Part shown: one piece after another, positions 45,680-54,336 of the stretch | How the letters are laid out: each line of letters starts with the position of its first letter | Numbering within the stretch: position 1 is the first letter of the stretch | Virus record (IMG/VR): IMGVR_UViG_2600255075_000001 | Location: 1 to 64,000 of that record | Direction: 5' to 3' (one strand) | DNA from: a virus | Lineage: Duplodnaviria; Caudoviricetes | Length of the DNA: 64,000 bases | Notes under the pieces: generated by a model | Databases searched by the model: none | Told to the model about the DNA's origin: nothing | Seen by the model: only the letters and a program-made list of their open reading frames with translations | Translations under genes and position numbers: made by a program

Positions 45680-46069
45680 TTATTGTCTTTTGTACATTAA
45701 GACGCTCGAAGCCTTATTATCATAATAGAACTTCATATTTCGAGAGTCATCTTTAGACAGCGGTATAAGATGTATTTCAGCCCTGTGTTCATAATCTTTC
45801 TTTTTTAGAGTCCAATCTAGATTGTAATTCACAAAATCATAACCATCGCAGAGTACACATACATCTATGTCACTATCAATATGTGCGCGCCCTGTCACTT
45901 GAGATCCAATAATTAAGACTTCGTCTACAAAATCAAAACTTGCAAGATAATCCGTAAACTTCTTCAAATTGAACCCCTCAGTTGTATTCACTGTCTGTAT
46001 CTCCTTCCGGAAAGTATCATTACTATTTGTAATCCCATAGCCTAACAGAATCCTGGTCAAACTCCTCAA
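45680..46069 (-). CDS. Minimal nucleotidyltransferase (MNT) domain protein
   Basis: VLIIGSQVTG....SDIDVCV. Confidence 0.8.
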   Translation of the reverse strand: MRSLTRILLGYGITNSNDTFRKEIQTVNTTEGFNLKKFTDYLASFDFVDEVLIIGSQVTGRAHIDSDIDVCVLCDGYDFVNYNLDWTLKKKDYEHRAEIHLIPLSKDDSRNMKFYYDNKASSVLMYKRQ

Positions 46070-46205
46070 CTACACCGTTGTACAATTTAATTTTAACCTT
46101 TGAAATAACATCTTTCGAAAATCCTTGGTATGAACCGGGGTGCTCCAGATAAACAACGCCGTTTCTTCCTTTTCCTGATACAATCACTTTATCATTAATT
46201 TTCAT
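46023..46205 (-). CDS. Hypothetical protein
   Basis: ORF with AGGAGG RBS. Confidence 0.6.
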   Translation of the reverse strand: MKINDKVIVSGKGRNGVVYLEHPGSYQGFSKDVISKVKIKLYNGVVEEFDQDSVRLWDYK

Positions 46206-46244
46206 AAGTCATCCTCCTAATGAAATTGTTGTTTTATCGGCCGC

Positions 46245-47024
46245 CTATTTTCTAAAAGTTCTTTCGTAGTCTTCAAAACGAATCTTACGAATCTGTTTTC
46301 TGTCTGCAGAGCGAGCAATTATACCTTCCGACTCTCCAATAGCATCAATGCCTACCTTTGTTTGCTCAAAGTTTCTCAAATATCGATAGGTCTCCTCTAA
46401 GGTAACTGGGAACTCTGATCCATACACTTCGTCCAGAAGTGGAGCCCATTCCAACCCATTCGCCTGAACAAATTTCCCCCTCTCTTCCTCGTTATAAAAA
46501 GGTTGATTTCCATGTTCGCGCCATTCAGCGATTTTTTCACTGGATAAAGATAGAAGGTTTTCAAGTTCATTCACGGTTAAGGAGAATACATCAAACACCT
46601 TATATGATTGCGTTTTACTGTCCGTATAATTCTTCGCTGCCTTTGTCTTACCGCCGTAAGATTCCTGATATACGACTGTCAATGCCCAATCCCCACTAGG
46701 AAAGTTATCTTCGACAAATCTTTCTGCCATTGGCTTAAGGAAATTTGCTATATTCCCATATGGATTTCCAATACGATCTCCCTTGGCATAAAGCAGTTCT
46801 TCTCTTGAGCCAATTAAATAGTCAATTTCATCAAATTGATTCCTAAAGAAAATAATACGTGAGTTCTCGCCATCTACTTTCTCATACACAAAAATTTTAT
46901 CTGAATCAGTTAGATACCCTCTTTCTTCTACTGCTTCTTCAGTTAGTTTTCCTCTTTCACCTAGTTTATGATATGTAAGGATGCTTGGATATTTCGTAAT
47001 CGAATTAATTTTTTTAAGATCCAC
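46245..47024 (-). CDS. RNA ligase (Rnl2-like ATP-dependent ligase)
   Basis: Motif I EKVDGEN, E.YG, FDV, EGII, KIR. Confidence 0.8.
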   Translation of the reverse strand: MDLKKINSITKYPSILTYHKLGERGKLTEEAVEERGYLTDSDKIFVYEKVDGENSRIIFFRNQFDEIDYLIGSREELLYAKGDRIGNPYGNIANFLKPMAERFVEDNFPSGDWALTVVYQESYGGKTKAAKNYTDSKTQSYKVFDVFSLTVNELENLLSLSSEKIAEWREHGNQPFYNEEERGKFVQANGLEWAPLLDEVYGSEFPVTLEETYRYLRNFEQTKVGIDAIGESEGIIARSADRKQIRKIRFEDYERTFRK

Positions 47025-47350
47025 TTATTAATTCCTCCAATGAAATTATCTTTTTATTAGATGGCACAATATAAATCGTATTGATATCATCTAATCGTAA
47101 TTTTTCGAAATCAAATTGTTCGTTCAAATTTTGCCATACATACTAATTCATCAGAGATCCAGAAAATTCCTTTCCCTTTTGATGTTCAAACCTCAGTTCC
47201 TGCAGGAATTTCTCTTTTTAACCTCCGAAATATAGACGACTTATGTATTGATCTTTGTGTTAAATATAATACTTCAAATGATTTTTGTCAATAACTTATA
47301 TACTTTTATTTTATAAATTTGTGAAGCTGCTCACCAGCTTCTAATTGTAC

Positions 47351-47560
47351 TTATACATGAAAAATTGAGGACTCCGGCTTCTCAGAGCGGTAATATTCTA
47401 ATTGAAGCAACATCTTATCTTCGGTTCGATAAAATTTAGCGTACGGCCTAGAACCGGCTAGGTTAGCTGCTGTTAGAACATTCATCACTTTGGTTTTTAA
47501 GCCAAAATAGATGTCGCAACCTTTATCGCTATAAACAAGACCAATCGTGTAATCGTTCAT
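47351..47560 (-). CDS. Small SOS-regulated hypothetical protein
   Basis: AAAAGGGGAG RBS; LexA box and extended -10 upstream. Confidence 0.65.
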   Translation of the reverse strand: MNDYTIGLVYSDKGCDIYFGLKTKVMNVLTAANLAGSRPYAKFYRTEDKMLLQLEYYRSEKPESSIFHV

Positions 47561-47622
47561 TATGAGCTCCCCTTTTGGTTATCCCGGTTGTCGTATTTAG
47601 GCTTATCATGCAGAAAAATATA

Positions 47623-47657
47623 AGAACATGAGTTCGCTTTTTTTCTCATTATACCAT
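47623..47657 (-). promoter_or_regulatory. LexA box plus extended -10 promoter
   Basis: AGAACATGAGTTCG at 47623-47636; TGGTATAAT on the minus strand at about 47648-47656. Confidence 0.75.
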
Positions 47658-47885
47658 GAGCAATAAACAAAGAATACAATAATTAGCCTTTAATTAGGGA
47701 AATATAATTTGCATTTTAACTTCCTCTTCTAAACTGTAAGATATATAACAATATGTCCGTTTGTCCATTCAATATCATTATATCTGTTAATAATGGTAAC
47801 ACCTTACATATTATATTGCATCATTAAAATATGGTCGTTTTTCTTCGAATTTTAATATTTACTTTTTTAAAATTACCATTTTATG

Positions 47886-47902
47886 TATCGAATAATGTCG
47901 AA
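47886..47902 (+). promoter_or_regulatory. Tandem Spo0A-box-like site
   Basis: TATCGAA-TAA-TGTCGAA; second copy is a perfect TGNCGAA. Confidence 0.45.
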
Positions 47903-47929
47903 ATAGCTGTAGACAACCTTTTGCTTAAC

Positions 47930-47960
47930 AAAAAATACCGCATTACTTCATGCGGTATTT
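47930..47960 (-). terminator. Terminator of the agr-like operon
   Basis: Stem aaataccgca/tgcggtattt with T-run on the minus strand just after the LytTR stop. Confidence 0.8.
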
Positions 47961-47963
47961 AAT

Positions 47964-48479
47964 CTAATGAAAGGTTGTCTTTTTAATGCCAATAGGCGAG
48001 TATTCAAACCTATCATTACAAACATCCATGTCTTTACTTAGGTGAGTTTTTAAAAAGTCTCTAATAACTCTATCCTGGATGCCTGCGACGAAAGGATGTT
48101 TAGTGTAATCGGCCTCAGTAAAATATATATTCCTCAACTTTGAGTCAAATTTTTTGATTTTCGGTATATTGATAGCTAGTCGCTTGTCTACAAACAGAAA
48201 TCCCTCTTCTTCCGAAATCATACCTATCAAATCTAAATGCTTATCGTGATATTTATAAGTCTTAGTTATAGTATGAACCATTGTTTCCTTACCCGGTTTA
48301 TCAACAAACAAAATATCATTGATATCTATCCATATCAGAGCATTATCCTCAACAGTCATAATCGTTCTGGGCTTATACTCACTATTCACTTTCTCCGCTA
48401 TCTCCAATACATCTGACTCGCAGAGCAAAGATCCAACTTTATTAAACAATGCCTCCCTAACGAATTTGATAATGGACAT
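47964..48479 (-). CDS. LytTR DNA-binding protein lacking a receiver domain
   Basis: IDINDILFV......VHT....Y...GFLFVDKRLAINIPKIKKFD is a LytTR pattern; start re-assigned to ATG 48479 behind AAGGTGA (171 aa). Confidence 0.82.
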   Translation of the reverse strand: MSIIKFVREALFNKVGSLLCESDVLEIAEKVNSEYKPRTIMTVEDNALIWIDINDILFVDKPGKETMVHTITKTYKYHDKHLDLIGMISEEEGFLFVDKRLAINIPKIKKFDSKLRNIYFTEADYTKHPFVAGIQDRVIRDFLKTHLSKDMDVCNDRFEYSPIGIKKTTFH

Positions 48480-48549
48480 ATTAATCACCTTTACTTTTTT
48501 AGTCCCCTTGATATTAGATACCAAGGGGCCAATTGGTTTTATAGCTTTT

Positions 48550-48666
48550 TCACTTTCTAACTTTTGGTTCATGGAACCAGATGTTAACTTTATCTACAGT
48601 ATTTTGCTCATTCTTTTTACCAATTTTCATGATTGCTTTCCCAAACCCTACGATAATTTTATTCAT
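48550..48666 (-). CDS. agrD: AgrD-like cyclic autoinducer propeptide (38 aa)
   Basis: Not in ORF track; AAAGGAGG RBS; MNKIIVGFGKAIMKIGKKNEQNTVDKVNIWFHEPKVRK = amphipathic leader, aromatic core, HEP + charged tail; inside the agrB operon. Confidence 0.78.
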   Translation of the reverse strand: MNKIIVGFGKAIMKIGKKNEQNTVDKVNIWFHEPKVRK

Positions 48667-49381
48667 TTATAGGTCCTCCTTTCAAATTTTTCGATTCGAA
48701 TTTACTAATATGGTAGCTAGTTTCATCCGAATTTCTTCTATATGAAAAATACAGGAATAAGCAAAAGAGTGTAAAGATTGCTATAGAGTACATGTAATAG
48801 CTGCCGTACTTTACAGGGGTGTCTACTAAAGTATAACCTGCAGAAAGGATTAGAATAATGAACAACGATACATGAAAATAAATTGTGGTTTTTTTATCAA
48901 TAGATCTAAAACCAAAAGCAAATCCTTGTTTCATAATCATAATGTATACGGAAATTGTATAGGCAATAAGTGAACAAATTACTTGAGATATATCTGATTT
49001 ATAGTTCATCGGTAGTGTAGCCTCTTCAAATGTTGAGAAGAACCCAGAGCGAACACTTAGGTGAACATAAACGGTTTGTATTAAGACGTAAAACACATTT
49101 CCTGCGATAACAACCCAGGTTGAATAAAGCCAGTTTTTTTCTTTGAAAACGTTCCTAATTAGAAGTATCAATGCTCCTATTTGAACAATCGTCATCACTG
49201 CTAATAGATCATACTCATAAAGTAAGAATGAAAGCACGGACATTAGTAAGCTGGTGAATAAAATCTCTCTCTTGTAGTACTGTAATTTGAAACCAAAAAT
49301 AGTCAGTGATAATACGATTAACGCACTGAACTCCAAAAAGGAAAGGAATATGTACCTAGCCGCAATCAACATGATTGTCAT
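48659..49381 (-). CDS. Polytopic membrane protein resembling an AgrC sensor domain with no histidine kinase
   Basis: About 6-7 hydrophobic helices; ends about 25 aa after the last TM with no H-box or ATPase domain; overlaps agrB and agrD. Confidence 0.75.
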   Translation of the reverse strand: MTIMLIAARYIFLSFLEFSALIVLSLTIFGFKLQYYKREILFTSLLMSVLSFLLYEYDLLAVMTIVQIGALILLIRNVFKEKNWLYSTWVVIAGNVFYVLIQTVYVHLSVRSGFFSTFEEATLPMNYKSDISQVICSLIAYTISVYIMIMKQGFAFGFRSIDKKTTIYFHVSLFIILILSAGYTLVDTPVKYGSYYMYSIAIFTLFCLFLYFSYRRNSDETSYHISKFESKNLKGGPINE

Positions 49382-49958
49382 GCACGCCCTTTGTAAAATA
49401 GATAAGGTGAATCGCCTGTATAAATATAGCGGCGCTAATGATAGCTGATCGATATATATATATATTGCCTGTTACTATAATGAGGCCGATTATCTTATAG
49501 AGTAAAAAGTTTTTGTTAAATGACATTCCCTTTCTAAAAGGTCCAAATAAAATAATAAGAAAGAACGATAAGCTGTCCATGAGCAACTTGTAATCATCAA
49601 CCGCATGCCCTATGTATGGTATTACAATAATAAGAGTAACAGTATATAGAACGCATAAGTCACTTGAAGGAAGGTGATGTCCTCCCAAAATAGCGCGCAT
49701 TACACCCAAAAGAACCATTCCGAGCAAAGTTTCAATTACCCTATTGGTGACTACTGATAAAATCAATACCAACAAAATTATCAACCCAAAATTTATTATC
49801 TTTTTTAAGCCTCGTTCTAATTCATCTTTTTTTAATTTATTTAAAGTATCCTTGTTTAGAATCCAATCAGTAAGTGTTTCTGCGAGGTAATAAACCAGTC
49901 GTCCACCACTCCTTCCATTATCCACCTTTAATATAGTTGTTCTCAGTAAATCGCACAA
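49356..49958 (-). CDS. agrB: AgrB-family peptide-processing membrane protein
   Basis: R...GG.H......C motif (MRAILGGHHLPSSDLC) with catalytic His/Cys; multi-TM; probable start CTG at 49898 behind AAGGAG. Confidence 0.88.
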   Translation of the reverse strand: MCDLLRTTILKVDNGRSGGRLVYYLAETLTDWILNKDTLNKLKKDELERGLKKIINFGLIILLVLILSVVTNRVIETLLGMVLLGVMRAILGGHHLPSSDLCVLYTVTLIIVIPYIGHAVDDYKLLMDSLSFFLIILFGPFRKGMSFNKNFLLYKIIGLIIVTGNIYIYRSAIISAAIFIQAIHLIYFTKGVHDNHVDCG

Positions 49959-49977
49959 GAATTATTTTCCTATTACT

Positions 49978-50006
49978 AATATATCATTATAATATTTTAT
50001 TGTAAA
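49978..50006 (-). promoter_or_regulatory. Putative SigA promoter of the agr-like operon
   Basis: TTTACA-N17-TATATT with TGn extension. Confidence 0.55.
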
Positions 50007-50022
50007 GTTTTATTATTATGTT

Positions 50023-50045
50023 AAAAATAACCCGACAGGGTTATT
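50023..50045 (-). terminator. Terminator after the mrpR-like gene
   Basis: aataaccc/gggttatt stem overlapping the stop, T-run on the minus strand. Confidence 0.65.
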
Positions 50046-51042
50046 GTTCATACACTTTTATGATCGTTTCAACATTCAAAAAATCCTCTTTAAGTCGGTG
50101 GTAGTTATATACCTCATAACCATTATTCATAACTTTTGATATACCAAACTTCTCACTTATTTCTTCATAATGATCTTTTTTAATTTCTCCATGCTTATCA
50201 TAAAAGCTTTTGGCCATATAGAGCATTCCAGAATTTCTTATTATATATGGCGACAAAACTCTTACCCAATCATCGTTATAACTTTTAACTGCCGCGATTC
50301 TCCGTTGAATCAAAAATTTATCTGCCTTACCATTAGTCTGACTGCGAGTAATAACATTCCTCAATACATAATCGCTCTGTTCTAAGTTAGCCTCTGCTGA
50401 CGATCTCATAGTGGGCTTTAGAATACCATTTTTTTTAATATAGGTCTTTTGATCAAGAGCTTTATACATTAAATTCATAAAATCTGAAGACACGTTGATA
50501 ACTCTCTCGTGTTCGCCGTCTGTTAAAGAAATCAGATTCTCACTCACGATGCTTTGACGCTTCAGATTTAGCAATTCATCGTAGCCACTTTTACCAAAAA
50601 CGCCTTCAAAGATTGCGATTATCGGAAATGCATCTTGAGCATTTACACACACACTAATCATACTATCAATTTCATCTTTTGTATAAAGCGACTTTTTAGA
50701 TATATCTATAAACTTTTTAAAATAATTATTTTCTGCCAGCACATCTAATGGATTAATATTTGTATCTCTCAGGTCCTGTTCTATTCCCCATCTTATATAG
50801 TTCTGGACCATATAAAAGTTCGAGCGGCTGGCATTCAGAGTTGATGGATTTAGGTAATGAAGTAAATTTTCAATCTGATCCAGCGTAAAATTATACAAAT
50901 CTTGCCCATATGTTTCTTCTATTGATTTGGCCCTTGAAAGAATTCTACGCGCTTGGAGTGAAGTAGTCTCTGGCAGAGAGTTTACGTATCTCATTTTTTG
51001 ATACTCGTTAAAATACCCGCCTTCATAAATTTTGTTTGACAT
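50041..51042 (-). CDS. mrpR: YopR/MrpR(SroF)-like lysogeny repressor with tyrosine-recombinase fold
   Basis: SAM-like N-domain (E..YG.DLYNFT..QI..LL), IFEG......ELLNLK lacking the catalytic Arg, IRNSG motif lacking the HxxR His; follows a YopQ-like gene as in SPbeta. Confidence 0.75.
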   Translation of the reverse strand: MSNKIYEGGYFNEYQKMRYVNSLPETTSLQARRILSRAKSIEETYGQDLYNFTLDQIENLLHYLNPSTLNASRSNFYMVQNYIRWGIEQDLRDTNINPLDVLAENNYFKKFIDISKKSLYTKDEIDSMISVCVNAQDAFPIIAIFEGVFGKSGYDELLNLKRQSIVSENLISLTDGEHERVINVSSDFMNLMYKALDQKTYIKKNGILKPTMRSSAEANLEQSDYVLRNVITRSQTNGKADKFLIQRRIAAVKSYNDDWVRVLSPYIIRNSGMLYMAKSFYDKHGEIKKDHYEEISEKFGISKVMNNGYEVYNYHRLKEDFLNVETIIKVYEQ

Positions 51043-51062
51043 TAGCGATTACTCCCTCTAAT

Positions 51063-52397
51063 TCAAGATATCCAACTCTTAATATCAATTTTTTCGAAGT
51101 GATCTTTTACTAACTTTTGCAGACGAGACGAAGCTCCTTTGTTGTAAGTAACCACTTTATCTAGCTCTTTAACTTCTTCAATAATTGTCTCAATGACATT
51201 CTTTATTTTACTAAACGACACATCGTTTTCTTTAAATATTTTTGCAATAACAATGTACCCAATAAACATGCGCGGCTGCCTTAGAAGACTTGTTTTTGTA
51301 TTGAACTCATCATCAAAAACCCCTAGCAAATTGTTGAAGAAGTCTGTTAAATATACCCCAACTTCCTTTGCTTCGAAAGCAGTTTTTGGCTCAAATACCT
51401 GGTCGATTGCATTTGCTAAAATATCTGTAGTCGTGTAATGGCCTGCCAATTCGCTAATCTTTGAACCTGAGGCAATCTTTCCTTTGAGATCGGAATTGAT
51501 CTGTAATTGTTTAACGGCAACATAAGAAACTTTCTCTTGTTTGAGTTGCTCAAGTCGTTCAGTTTTAACTACGTTGATAGTGTTAATTTGACCAAAATAC
51601 TTTTTAGCGGTATCTGTGTCATAAACTCGTATACTCAATATTATATCTTGCTGCAGATCCGGATTAACAGATAAAGCCCTTACTGCTCCTTGAAGTCGGT
51701 GAAATCCATCAAGAATAGAGATGGTAGCTCCTTCCTTAATAGTCAAGACTTTAGATTTTGGATTGTATGTTATCGGATCGAAATCCTCAGAATAGACGTT
51801 TAGAGTAATCATATCAGGCAGATATGTTTCATTTAACATATGTTCTGCAATATCTTTTACGCTTTGCAAATTAACATCTGGTACAGGGACAACCCCATCT
51901 CTTCCCTTTTTATATTTGGCGCTTCTCTGTGTTTCGAAATCGTAAACAATAATCTTGTTATGGTACCATTTTACTGGCTCCGAAATTTTAATTGTAGTAA
52001 CAAAATTTTCATGATCAATTTGTAGCACACTGTTAATCGATATAGGAAGATTAACATCTTTAACTTCCTTGCCTGTATACTTCCTTGCTTCTGATATCTC
52101 ACCTTCAGTAAAATAATTTTCTGCTCTCACTTCGTCAGACCCATCAATTTTAAATACGGCCATTGAGATAAGACAGAGAACAGCGGTATCAATTTCTCCA
52201 AGTAAATTTTCGTTTTTAATAATTTCGTTAAAAAATCCAGAAGGTATGTCATATTCGGATAAATTTTTATTTACTTCCTCAATATTTTTTCTTTTATATT
52301 TTATTCTTTCTATTGCATTAGTCAGATTGCTTTCAAGTTCGCTACGGTCACGCAACATAATAAAAACTCCTTCCTTCATACCACATACTATAGTCAT
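51063..52397 (-). CDS. YopQ(SroE)-like ParB/DndB (DGQHR-type) protein
   Basis: QR motif, ITLN, ILDGFHR, F.QINT; size and position like SPbeta yopQ. Confidence 0.72.
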   Translation of the reverse strand: MTIVCGMKEGVFIMLRDRSELESNLTNAIERIKYKRKNIEEVNKNLSEYDIPSGFFNEIIKNENLLGEIDTAVLCLISMAVFKIDGSDEVRAENYFTEGEISEARKYTGKEVKDVNLPISINSVLQIDHENFVTTIKISEPVKWYHNKIIVYDFETQRSAKYKKGRDGVVPVPDVNLQSVKDIAEHMLNETYLPDMITLNVYSEDFDPITYNPKSKVLTIKEGATISILDGFHRLQGAVRALSVNPDLQQDIILSIRVYDTDTAKKYFGQINTINVVKTERLEQLKQEKVSYVAVKQLQINSDLKGKIASGSKISELAGHYTTTDILANAIDQVFEPKTAFEAKEVGVYLTDFFNNLLGVFDDEFNTKTSLLRQPRMFIGYIVIAKIFKENDVSFSKIKNVIETIIEEVKELDKVVTYNKGASSRLQKLVKDHFEKIDIKSWIS

Positions 52398-52569
52398 TAT
52401 ATCACAGATTGTTGACTATAAATAATAAAAATATACACAGAAATACATCTCATGAAAAGCCTTATTGCTTTGAGATATATCCCTATGTATATTTTCAATT
52501 TAATTAACGTATTATTTTACAATAAAATCTTGTTTTTATAGGTTAATGCTATGAAAGAAGCTCCACGCT

Positions 52570-53274
52570 CTAACTCAATTCGTCAGGAGTGTTTATAAAT
52601 TGAATAAATTGCTTGCCTAACGCAGATGTTCTAGAGGCGACCATTCCGCTACCACCCATTATAGTATGCAAATCGCTTGAGTCTTTACTAATAAGTCCTC
52701 TATTGTACAAATCGCTCATTATCAGTTTCGTAAATTCTAGTTCGCCTGATAACTGCGGATAATACTGAAAAATAACTAGCCCAATACTTCCCTTATCTAA
52801 ATCTATTGAGTGCCCAGCCTTTTGCAAATTTTGTTTTGGATCATTGAGAAAGAATAAAATTTTTAAATGCCATTCATTAAATGAATCAATAAAAGATAAA
52901 AACATTTGTTGTCGATTTTCATCAATTGAATTAGTAAGCGCTGAATTGCTGACCGCGTTAAGTAGTGCTGCACGTTTTTCAATTTGATGAGTCCTGATTG
53001 ATATATTTATAGCTTGTAAAACAACGCTCAAGAAAGCTTCATTGTTAGATAAGGAATAGATGTCAAATGTCTCGATTTTATTATTTAGTTCATTCAGTCT
53101 TTGGTCCAACATAACCAATATATTCTCTTTTCTTTTTTCTGCCGGGGACGTAACAACTAAACCGAAGTATTCCGATAAAAATCCCCCAACTGCAGGGATA
53201 GCCGAAATTGTGCTTTTGATTGTTGCGTGAACAATATCGCCTTTAGTGTTTTTAAAATTATCATCAATACTCAC
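52570..53274 (-). CDS. Hypothetical protein, possibly Abi-alpha-like
   Basis: ISAIPAVGG..., EKR..L.N, F....D......LK.L, C-terminal winged-helix-like L...GLI...T.LGKQFIQFI. Confidence 0.55.
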   Translation of the reverse strand: MSIDDNFKNTKGDIVHATIKSTISAIPAVGGFLSEYFGLVVTSPAEKRKENILVMLDQRLNELNNKIETFDIYSLSNNEAFLSVVLQAINISIRTHQIEKRAALLNAVSNSALTNSIDENRQQMFLSFIDSFNEWHLKILFFLNDPKQNLQKAGHSIDLDKGSIGLVIFQYYPQLSGELEFTKLIMSDLYNRGLISKDSSDLHTIMGGSGMVASRTSALGKQFIQFINTPDELS

Positions 53275-53517: not shown

Positions 53518-53973
53518 TTATTGACCGGTAATTAATTTAAGCAATTTTCTTTGTTGTTCTAAGGATAAATTTTGAAACATGCATGTGCTAATTTTCTGTA
53601 ACAAAATGGGTTCAATTGTGCAGACGATATTTTTATACTCTTCTTGATAATCTGACCTACTTTTTAAACAAGGAATAAGTGAATTGATATGATAATGGTT
53701 AACAATTGCATTTAGTAAAACAGTTATAGATACTTTGCCCATGTTACGCAATCTATAGATATATGAGAACTTGACGTTCATCACGTTTTCAAGGTTGCAA
53801 ATTCCACCTCTACGTAACGCGTTAATAACTCTTGTTTCTCTATTTGCCCCTGGATTCACAAATAGATCTTCTACAGGCGTCTCGTTTCTAAAGTCATCCT
53901 TTATATCTAGAAGATTCATTAAAGGTTGATCAATATTTTTTATTAAATAATCAAGAGTGATTGGAGTAGACAT
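53518..53973 (-). CDS. Stand-alone RNA polymerase alpha-CTD-like protein
   Basis: PVEDL.....TRVINALRRGGI..L..V........LRNMGKVS matches the alpha-CTD helix-hairpin-helix signature. Confidence 0.7.
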   Translation of the reverse strand: MSTPITLDYLIKNIDQPLMNLLDIKDDFRNETPVEDLFVNPGANRETRVINALRRGGICNLENVMNVKFSYIYRLRNMGKVSITVLLNAIVNHYHINSLIPCLKSRSDYQEEYKNIVCTIEPILLQKISTCMFQNLSLEQQRKLLKLITGQ

Positions 53974-54018: not shown

Positions 54019-54336
54019 CTACTGTTCAATTGGAATAATAAAACTACCCTGATCTCTAAACATCTGATCAATCTCATAAACAATTTTAGTGTTTCTCGAT
54101 ACTCGGCTCCAGTTTTGAACAAGTAACTCATTAATACCTTGGTTTTTCATTTCATCAAGAATATTCTCAAACCGATCACTCCGCTGGTTTGCCGAGATTA
54201 CATCTTTGAATACGGCAATGACCCGTTTGTCATTGTCCTCGGCAAACTGTTTGCATCCCACAATCTGTTTACCTAGTTTCTCTTCTGCTTGTTCTTGTGT
54301 TCCAACTCTTACATATATCATAACAGAATTACTCAC
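54019..54336 (-). CDS. Serine-recombinase catalytic-domain-only protein, catalytic Ser replaced by Gly
   Basis: IYVRVGTQEQ (canonical YxRVST), D..SA..R..F, SRVSRN; no DNA-binding domain. Confidence 0.75.
   Translation of the reverse strand: MSNSVMIYVRVGTQEQAEEKLGKQIVGCKQFAEDNDKRVIAVFKDVISANQRSDRFENILDEMKNQGINELLVQNWSRVSRNTKIVYEIDQMFRDQGSFIIPIEQ

Follow-up and report, generated by a model that had tools for sequence, protein, structure and literature searches.

A kinase-less agr-like cassette behind the master repressor gene of an SPbeta-like Paenibacillus prophage is a candidate peptide-signalling module

A four-gene, agr-like cassette lies directly behind mrpR, the master repressor gene, in a 64,000-nucleotide stretch of a Caudoviricetes virus record (IMGVR_UViG_2600255075_000001, positions 1 to 64,000). 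We refer to this whole stretch as the window and give coordinates in it unless another locus is named. The cassette runs on the minus strand in the order promoter, agrB, membrane-protein gene, AgrD-like peptide gene, lytTR and terminator (Table 1). Its genes are tightly packed: agrB overlaps the membrane-protein gene by 26 bases, and the ATG of the peptide gene lies inside the last codons of the membrane-protein gene. Searching the four cassette proteins against NCBIfam returned nothing, and an Rfam search of positions 46000-53000 at E values up to 1 gave just two chance-level eukaryotic families. The surrounding element is a large SPbeta-like Paenibacillus prophage. The window sits within a contig that extends for at least 975 kb, in a genome of 6.43 Mb, and has PHROG matches to DNA polymerase (1.9e-232), both ribonucleotide-reductase subunits, a DnaB-like helicase and primase. 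MrpR, a protein of 333 residues, is about 29% identical to SPbeta YopR. When it was compared by tblastn with phage records, 76 records matched, every match at less than 60% identity; among the 30 records listed of these 76, identity was 28-33%, and 28-29% for the YopR of the SPbeta group. The matched records include SPbeta-group phages with a gene annotated yopR, and Geobacillus virus E3. At the nucleotide level, positions 47900-52400 had no blastn match in 50,697 phage records, and five sequencing runs labelled with the same species contained almost none of the sequence words of the window.

The first cassette gene encodes a peptidase of the AgrB family. Its longest frame, from a TTG at 49958, has 200 codons. 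The true start is probably CTG 49898, because a sister phage (G083) has a TAA right before the same codon and the DNA is conserved up to there. In the sister phage, a 19-codon frame from the TTG stops at the TAA directly 5′ of the agrB CTG (locus L022, 9448-9510), and the matching frame in the window (49896-49958) continues into agrB; translational coupling or a leader peptide is possible for this upstream frame. R68, G72, H75, C82, P120 and K135 were invariant in 12 aligned homologues. H75 and C82, seven residues apart, form the His/Cys pair that, from work on Staphylococcus aureus, we take to be catalytic. This is the sole AgrB in the 6.43-Mb genome. It matched none of the 50,697 phage records by tblastn, as a query so insensitive that it missed phage Davies, which has a clear AgrB; the AgrB of another allele (G032) matched 11 of the records, all of 20-58 kb and none of them SPbeta-like.

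The second gene encodes a membrane protein that reached no Pfam family at cut-off and had no HisKA or HATPase match in Pfam. AlphaFold, given a 44-sequence alignment, modelled it as seven long helices, of which the last reaches well past the bundle (predicted local distance difference test (pLDDT) 91.5, predicted template modelling score 0.87). A phmmer search of 1.84 billion representative sequences found 51 proteins at E<=0.001, mostly of 208-240 residues; 50 of the 51 listed are no longer than 240 residues, and the other has 360 residues with five matched stretches. Each of the ten that we looked up is either a 'hypothetical protein' of a Paenibacillus species or has no name. No column of the family alignment is invariant, and its only near-invariant positions are a Glu and two Phe. 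A word-based homologue search recovered only the protein itself, a family member compared with the phage records matched none, and the family profile found nothing among PDB sequences. The model had no Foldseek match in the PDB at E<=0.001, and a wide VIA-align search gave at best a Z score of 8.5, to Pex3, which is in the range expected of helical bundles. In a structure search of the ESM Atlas, the nearest cluster was named 'GHKL domain-containing' (TM-score 0.70 over 227 residues), and 21% of that cluster carry PF14501, the AgrC-type ATPase domain.

The membrane-family profile also matched the first approximately 210 residues of proteins of 413-450 residues that are encoded beside AgrB in other families. 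Four such proteins were seen in the class (L097 2788-4053, L098 1734-2999, L099 2246-3598 and L100 2433-3674), with E values of 1e-13 to 1e-19 for the N-terminal half. We considered these as a link between the membrane family and kinases, and rejected them: the three that we checked had no Pfam kinase domain, their C-terminal halves had no Pfam family at all, and comparison of the C-terminal halves with the AgrC-type catalytic half by hhalign gave a probability of <1%. At L097, a separate soluble protein with HisKA and HATPase_c domains is encoded just upstream of the long gene.

The last gene encodes a LytTR protein. Its longest frame, of 202 residues, opens at 48572; the start is probably the ATG at 48479, which is preceded by a Shine-Dalgarno sequence of its own and would give a protein of 171 residues. 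In the PDB, a profile built from 11 homologues matched the DNA-binding domain of AgrA (4xqj, 3bs1; 2-3e-5) and ComE (8.6e-4). The protein had no receiver match in Pfam, and a length of just 171-202 residues, of which the LytTR domain takes up 79-152 in the 202-residue frame, leaves no space for one. Between the membrane-protein gene and lytTR lies the peptide gene, with a strong Shine-Dalgarno sequence, AAAGGAGG, eight bases ahead of its ATG. Pfam returned nothing meaningful for the 38-residue product. Its position is that of AgrD-like open reading frames (ORFs) in 10 other loci of the same gene order (type 1, below). Most short ORFs beside membrane-family loci are AgrD-like and end in an [H/N/F]-x-P-x-x-P tail that has a Cys or Ser five residues ahead of it. 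Among the cassette phages, six of nine peptides are canonical in this respect, having Cys (in three) or Ser (in three) five residues ahead of an [H/N/F]-x-P tail; those of the window, G083 and G129 are not.

A preliminary description of this DNA, made from its letters alone, had predicted much of this anatomy: a four-gene operon with its own promoter and terminator in an SPbeta-type phage, directly downstream of YopQ- and MrpR-like genes, and consisting of an agrB with an intact His/Cys motif, a protein with 6-7 transmembrane helices and no histidine-kinase domain, a 38-residue agrD-like ORF and a LytTR protein without a receiver. All of these parts were found in our analysis, on the minus strand and supported by the matches given here and in Table 1. 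The description had also called the peptide cyclic. The AgrD-like peptide stands, and a cyclic product is not assured for the window allele because this peptide has no Cys or Ser. Its product could be linear, or, speculatively, closed into a ring through a conserved Thr (lactone) or Lys (lactam).

Table 1. Features of the repressor, cassette and downstream region of the window
Feature	Coordinates	Strand	Basis
yopQ-like gene (DndB/DGQHR fold), first gene of the repressor operon	51063..52397	-	Pfam DndB 3.1e-9
mrpR (yopR/sroF-type master repressor, recombinase-like)	50041..51042	-	Pfam MrpR_N_CB 1.3e-24, MrpR_C_cat 6.3e-14
Promoter of the agr-like operon, TTTACA-17-TATATT, TG-extended	49978..50006	-	pattern scan, 10/12 matches with TG
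agrB (AgrD-processing cysteine peptidase)	49356..49958	-	Pfam AgrB 4.4e-12, 46 bits against a cut-off of 23
Seven-helix membrane protein without kinase domain, 240 residues, candidate peptide sensor/LytTR partner	48659..49381	-	AlphaFold model
AgrD-like propeptide, 38 residues, MNKIIVGFGKAIMKIGKKNEQNTVDKVNIWFHEPKVRK, no Cys/Ser	48550..48666	-	Shine-Dalgarno, position
Receiver-less LytTR DNA-binding protein	47964..48572	-	Pfam LytTR 9.1e-5, 23.1 bits against a cut-off of 22.6 (marginal)
Intrinsic terminator of the cassette	47933..47960	-	11-pair stem, 6-nt loop, T-run
Direct repeats TCTACA / TTCGACA / TCGATACA, pitch ~11 bp, then TGgTAATTT; candidate LytTR operator and output promoter	47884..47913	-	sequence
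Extended -10 promoter TGgTATAAT (47656-47648) and SOS box CGAACTCATGTTCT (47636-47623)	47623..47656	-	read by eye, found by pattern
o69, 69-residue ORF, candidate Sar-type antirepressor by position, size and SOS box only	47351..47560	-	conservation

We surveyed a sample of 136 genomes of the bacterial family and a wider, class-level sample of 401 genomes. Homologues of the window MrpR occurred at 21 places in 19 of the 136 genomes. We analysed 20 loci, namely 18 that were fetched, the window and G083; the 21st, a partial match at a contig start, was left out. The yopQ-like gene is paired with mrpR in 12 of these loci, as it is in SPbeta, E3 and Perkons, and in nine of the 12, mrpR is immediately followed by agrB, the membrane-protein gene and lytTR in the same orientation. 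These nine cassettes span five genera, with MrpR identity down to 33%. The three yopQ-mrpR loci without a cassette are phages of the window's own genus. None of the eight MrpR-like loci without yopQ has a cassette, and none was found within 5 kb of mrpR in SPbeta, Sundance, E3, KKP_3916 or Perkons. As a positive control, the cassette of Davies was picked up by the AgrB and membrane-family models, and its gp48 was missed by the LytTR model. The link between cassette and mrpR that the preliminary description had suggested is thus a recurrent one.

The membrane family itself is widespread: it was found in 115 of the 136 family genomes, often in several copies and always in open frames of 195-289 residues, and in 37 of the 401 genomes of the class-wide sample. 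AgrB stands beside the membrane-protein gene in 27 of the 30 best loci, of which 11 have the order agrB-membrane-(peptide)-lytTR (type 1) and 16 the order membrane-agrB-(peptide)-small lytTR (type 2). Of the 13 type-1 loci seen overall, nine are linked to mrpR; the others comprise one behind another integrase-family gene, one surrounded by metabolic genes, one adjoining an HSP90 gene and one truncated by the end of its contig.

Comparison with G083 revealed a local divergence. The DNA of the two phages is 92.8% identical over 52539-49869 (yopQ, mrpR, the promoter, the leader and the first agrB codons), has no detectable similarity over 49868-47956, and is again 82.5% identical over 47955-47032, resuming inside the terminator. 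At the protein level, AgrB is 37%, the membrane protein 26%, the peptide 41% and LytTR 35% identical, and MrpR 96%. All four cassette frames are open in both alleles. Because the borders are sharp and fall at conserved flanks, the whole four-gene block looks to have been exchanged, as a swapped specificity allele would be. The specificity groups of agr, com and arbitrium systems form a comparable allele pattern. The window and G083 peptides have in common the segment NT-x-DKV-x-x-W and a downstream tail Pro, and since the segment is shared at only 41% overall peptide identity, this argues for selection on it.

The cassette has its own transcription signals. As a class, promoter-like sites are not enriched in the region (19 found against 17.6 expected from shuffles), so we place weight on position and conservation. 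The cassette promoter is conserved in the sister phage, and seven other cassette phages have a TG-preceded TTGAC(T/G)-17-TATATT/TAAATT at the equivalent place. From its sequence, it looks constitutive. Just ahead of it, after the mrpR stop, a short hairpin with a T-run was seen by eye and is not in the list of the pattern scan.

Beyond the terminator lie direct repeats of the type TCGACA. Their 19-mer occurs once in the 64-kb window, and repeats of this type, in two to four copies at the pitch seen in the window, were present 3′ of lytTR in 11 of the 11 type-1 cassettes inspected (nine of nine phages and two cassettes not beside mrpR). They were absent from the spacer between mrpR and the following ORF in the three cassette-less sister phages. 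The element is identical in the window and G083 although the LytTR proteins share 35% identity. We infer that the repeats are a putative LytTR operator of an outward-facing promoter, because they go with the cassette and not with the repressor allele, and because they are identical in both phages. We rejected the repeats as an MrpR operator: MrpR alleles vary widely, the published SroF motifs differ, and the repeats are kept in all 11 cassettes, including the two located away from mrpR. Four cassette phages of other genera have, 3′ of the repeats, a further small gene with a LytTR domain (135-167 residues; Pfam E values of 9e-9 to 6e-3; L071 2914-3378, L076 2917-3399, L077 3073-3480 and L079 3010-3513), and therefore encode two bare LytTR proteins.

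About 230 bp beyond the repeats is an SOS-box promoter. The sequence CGAACTCATGTTCT directly behind its -10 element fits the GAAC-N4-GTTC core, and o69 comes next; G083 has CGAACTTATGTTCC at the equivalent place, in a like arrangement. A 39-residue ORF at 47560-47679 was rejected as a gene, as it overlaps the promoter and SOS box. In the cassette-less relatives, the spacer between mrpR and the ORF holds two SOS boxes in two of three (L064, L065) and one in the third (L066); in L064 and L065, the two GAAC-N4-GTTC sites flank the -10 element of a promoter between mrpR and the small ORF. The o69 protein is conserved in five phages of the genus at 45-90% identity. Its homologue in the cassette-less phages has 66 residues, is 45-48% identical and lies directly after mrpR. 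Its divergence tracks that of MrpR, with 48% identity where MrpR has 69% and 90% where MrpR has 96%. The o69 model has a pLDDT of 94. In SPbeta-like phages, the available text of a recent preprint (10.1101/2025.11.27.690993) describes Sar, a small LexA-controlled antirepressor of SroF (YopR/MrpR) that induces the phage, is encoded one ORF downstream of the repressor gene and has a YopT-like fold. According to the same text, repressor-antirepressor pairs co-evolve, known Sar proteins are less than 20% identical to each other, and arbitrium forms a second layer of control. On the basis of position, size and SOS box, o69 is a candidate Sar-type antirepressor. One cassette phage (G051) encodes, about 5 kb upstream of yopQ, a 387-residue repressor with HTH_3 and Peptidase_S24 domains, of the self-cleaving LexA/CI type (L067 1739-2902); this phage would have a separate SOS-sensing route.

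SPbeta-type phages are known for arbitrium, and the preliminary description had supposed that this phage communicates by other means. The Pfam AimR family (PF22871) gave nothing over cut-off in five of five genomes of the genus, with a positive Bacillus subtilis control, which agrees with that supposition. The sole PF22871 match, at 22 bits, was to a host protein of 592 residues on a different contig, and the SPbeta AimR protein had no match in the window's genome. The host genome has one AgrC-type kinase (432 residues), which adjoins a LytTR response regulator on another contig (C15; L053 1-3301). This kinase pair adjoins a serine-hydrolase-like gene, and there is no AgrB nearby. Between Paenibacillus, Brevibacillus and Peribacillus, this kinase keeps 65-96% identity, in contrast to the strongly diverged peptide alleles, and it is therefore unlikely to be the reader of the hypervariable peptide.

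Together, these comparisons suggest that the cassette is a self-contained, phosphorylation-independent, agr-type peptide-signalling module within the lysogeny-control region of an SPbeta-like prophage, a reading for which we judge the chances to be about even. The genes and signals for its first step are present: a sigma-A-type promoter just past mrpR would transcribe agrB, the membrane-protein gene, agrD and lytTR. As in its family, AgrB, with its dyad intact, would cut the C-terminal tail off the 38-residue peptide and yield a secreted signal. The seven-helix membrane protein may detect this peptide extracellularly and hold or release LytTR, as do the membrane inhibitors of LytTR regulatory systems (LRS). 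Judging from conserved positions, LytTR that has been freed would bind the TCGACA repeats past its own terminator and set transcription out of the cassette, towards the SOS-controlled o69 and the early genes behind it. The outcome would be an allele-specific density input to the lysis-lysogeny or induction switch of a phage without recognisable arbitrium, with either lysogeny or induction as the possible response to a high peptide level. On this model, the SPbeta-like phages of the Paenibacillaceae may have a second, non-arbitrium form of communication, in which an AgrB-processed peptide and a kinase-less receptor that gates LytTR on TCGACA repeats tune the region of the SOS-controlled antirepressor, so that induction or lysogeny depends on the density of lysogens with the same allele; the signal of the window's allele would be of a new chemotype, linear or closed through Thr or Lys. 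We advance this broader proposal tentatively and regard it as possible but somewhat doubtful.

Several observations weigh against these proposals. The window peptide has no Cys or Ser, and a Val stands five residues ahead of its HEP tail. The module type is common on chromosomes, and at least one type-1 copy (L102) lies amid metabolic genes (ApbA and alcohol dehydrogenase). On the side of the receptor, the resemblance of the membrane protein's predicted fold to an AgrC-like sensor module comes from a single predicted-structure match and is a lead only, and comparison of the membrane family by hhalign with the host AgrC-type kinase and with 120 homologues gave a probability of <1%. On the side of the output, no TCGACA-type repeats are found upstream of the agrB promoter in the nine phages, unlike in the described LRS, and, at about 11 bp, the pitch of the repeats is shorter than that of AgrA and ComE sites, at about 21 bp. 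No SOS box was found within 2.5 kb downstream in the seven cassette phages of other genera, and o69 had no match to YopT/2DLB by hhalign (against SPbeta YopT), Foldseek or VIA-align. The preliminary description had proposed a phosphorylation-independent hybrid of agr and LRS, and named, among the findings that would speak against it, an ordinary chromosomal locus that signals through a host kinase and is unlinked to mrpR. The anatomy and the linkage to mrpR were borne out, whereas the lack of a ring Cys or Ser and the frequency of the module on chromosomes qualify the proposal; likewise, the locus is indeed of a common chromosomal kind, but its linkage to mrpR holds.

Because the module type is common on chromosomes, a role in the phage's decision is not implied by the module itself. 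It might instead be a moron, a transplanted host-type quorum module used for lysogenic conversion, kin discrimination or superinfection control, with accessory or host genes and not the lysis-lysogeny switch as its targets. The abundance of the module on Paenibacillaceae chromosomes (115/136 genomes, with AgrB beside it in 27/30 loci) and the type-1 copy that adjoins the ApbA and alcohol-dehydrogenase genes fit this explanation, as do its own promoter and terminator, its moron-like presence or absence among phages of the same genus, and the other gene order, near the integrase, in smaller Brevibacillus and Paenibacillus larvae phages. A fixed spot directly after mrpR in nine of 12 yopQ-mrpR loci and five genera would however be unusual for a moron, the output repeats face a region with an SOS-controlled small ORF, and allele diversification between near-identical phages fits a phage-to-phage specificity signal. 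We consider the moron explanation unlikely, though with a real chance of being right.

A different role for the membrane protein is, in our estimate, quite unlikely. It may be a partner of AgrB in trimming, export or self-protection and not a receptor, with the peptide sensed by a host kinase or after uptake, and LytTR under some other input. Its gene nearly always adjoins agrB and often overlaps it, no sequence similarity of the protein to a true AgrC sensor was found, and the host AgrC-type kinase and LytTR regulator form a pair without an AgrB of their own. Maturation of the canonical autoinducing peptide moreover requires a second membrane protease, MroQ. Against a partner of this kind, the membrane family has no invariant column and no catalytic-type motif, and its sole structural lead, from a predicted model, points to the sensor domains of GHKL proteins; against a host reader, the kinase is 65-96% identical over three genera in the face of strongly differing peptide alleles. 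The receiver-less LytTR of the same operon also needs an input, for which the precedent in LRS is a membrane protein (available text of PMC6193735). We think it very unlikely that the window allele is decaying, with a peptide that no longer works as a signal and a cassette that is a relic. It is true that Val stands five places before the HEP tail of a 38-residue peptide without Cys or Ser, that the G129 allele likewise has no nucleophile at the ring position, and that the conserved start position of agrB holds no canonical start codon; but in neither of the diverged alleles is any of the four frames interrupted, AgrB keeps its dyad, a strong Shine-Dalgarno sequence precedes the peptide gene, and the sharing of NT-x-DKV-x-x-W and the tail Pro at 41% overall identity points to selection on that segment.

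The module that we favour, a kinase-less agr-type cassette with a membrane receptor, has parts in common with several known systems. Like canonical agr (agrBDCA of S. aureus), it combines an AgrB His/Cys peptidase, a polytopic membrane protein and a LytTR protein in one operon with diversified alleles, and its short propeptide begins with an amphipathic or hydrophobic part and ends in a charged tail that contains Pro. In canonical agr, AgrC fuses a polytopic sensor to an HPK10-type histidine kinase (HATPase_c_5), AgrA joins a receiver to a LytTR domain, and AgrD has, five residues ahead of the cleavage site, a Cys or Ser that closes a thiolactone or lactone ring. Unlike agr, the cassette has neither a histidine-kinase nor a receiver domain and so no phosphorelay, its peptide in the window has no Cys or Ser, and the candidate operator is downstream and not upstream of the operon. 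An agrABCD locus has been reported in Paenibacillus polymyxa (available text of PMC13700820). LRS such as HdrRM and BrsRM of Streptococcus mutans pair a receiver-less LytTR protein with a membrane inhibitor and use direct-repeat DNA sites, which resembles the cassette; unlike the cassette, the LRS described in the available text of PMC6193735 come without AgrB, AgrD or a known peptide ligand, and their repeats lie just 5′ of the -35 element of their own operon, in positive feedback, whereas those of the cassette lie 3′ of the operon. The membrane protein of the cassette also differs in being a seven-helix protein of a separate family.

Among phages, agr cassettes were noted in 2014 in Brevibacillus phages Davies, Abouo and Emery and P. 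larvae phages Harrison and Paisley (Hargreaves et al., PMC3901668, available text). These share with the window AgrB, an AgrD-like peptide and membrane proteins without a HATPase domain; a LytTR partner or an operator is not mentioned in the available text of that paper. In Davies (46 kb), we found that gp44 and gp45 are members of the window's membrane family (E values of 5e-32 and 1e-30), that gp46 is AgrB and that gp48 is LytTR-like (0.0074, under the Pfam cut-off); its cassette is of type 2 and lies beside the integrase. Phages of the Davies type differ in having 44-58 kb and the order membrane-agrB-agrD-small LytTR next to the integrase and CI-type regulators; they are not SPbeta-like and have no linkage to mrpR. 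The Clostridioides difficile phage phiCDHM1 is also a temperate phage with agrB and agrD, in its agr3 locus, but according to the available text of PMC3901668 it has a full-length AgrC kinase of 453 residues and no regulator, the reverse of the window, which has LytTR and no kinase. Arbitrium (AimR-AimP-AimX) is alike in its phage-encoded, secreted peptide near the yopQ-yopR/mrpR operon, its allelic specificity groups, an output transcript that begins just beyond the signalling genes, and its place as a second layer beside the SOS-controlled Sar (available text of 10.1101/2025.11.27.690993). Its proteins are unrelated: an intracellular tetratricopeptide-repeat receptor acts after import of a linear hexapeptide by Opp, in contrast to an AgrB-processed peptide, a membrane protein and LytTR. 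Kinase-less agr cassettes in phages have thus been known in passing since 2014 (available text of PMC3901668), and the kind of module, a variant of agr and LRS, is common yet uncharacterised in Paenibacillaceae. In the literature that we searched, we found no published description of an mrpR-linked kinase-less module. Our analysis adds the allele swap, the linkage to mrpR in nine of 12 loci, the conserved TCGACA repeats, the SOS-boxed o69 and a peptide without Cys or Ser.

Some further features surround the region. The palindrome ATRAAA-N6-TTTYAT occurs at 46 sites in the window against 0.22 expected, mainly between genes (for example, at 47040-47057 and 52522-52539). It is absent from 47058-52521, so that yopQ, mrpR, the agr cassette and the 69-residue ORF form one palindrome-free block; the palindrome could be a phage repressor operator or an operon punctuation mark. 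The yopQ-like protein has 444 residues and, besides DndB, an NCBIfam DGQHR match (2.2e-7) that is under the cut-off of that family. A 105-residue ORF at 54019-54336 is a resolvase N-terminal domain alone, without a DNA-binding domain (Pfam Resolvase 1.9e-11). At 53518-53973, a protein of 151 residues has a weak match to the C-terminal domain of the RNA polymerase alpha subunit (Pfam E value of 0.019, under cut-off); a counterpart stands ahead of yopQ in G083 and, with weaker conservation, in G132. Downstream of o69, a gene of the RNA-ligase family lies at 46245-47024 (Pfam RNA_ligase 4e-8).

To our knowledge, arbitrium and Rap-Phr-type RRNPP systems are the only characterised forms of phage-to-phage peptide communication, and their receptors are intracellular. 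Two sister phages with a near-identical backbone and a swapped cassette, together with three cassette-less relatives, make up a ready panel for tests of specificity and function. If our proposal is true, a surface-sensed, phosphorylation-free agr/LytTR module at the repressor-antirepressor region would give phages a second means of communication, with a different mechanism, and it would explain how hundreds of uncharacterised loci with AgrB and a membrane protein in Paenibacillaceae could signal without a kinase.

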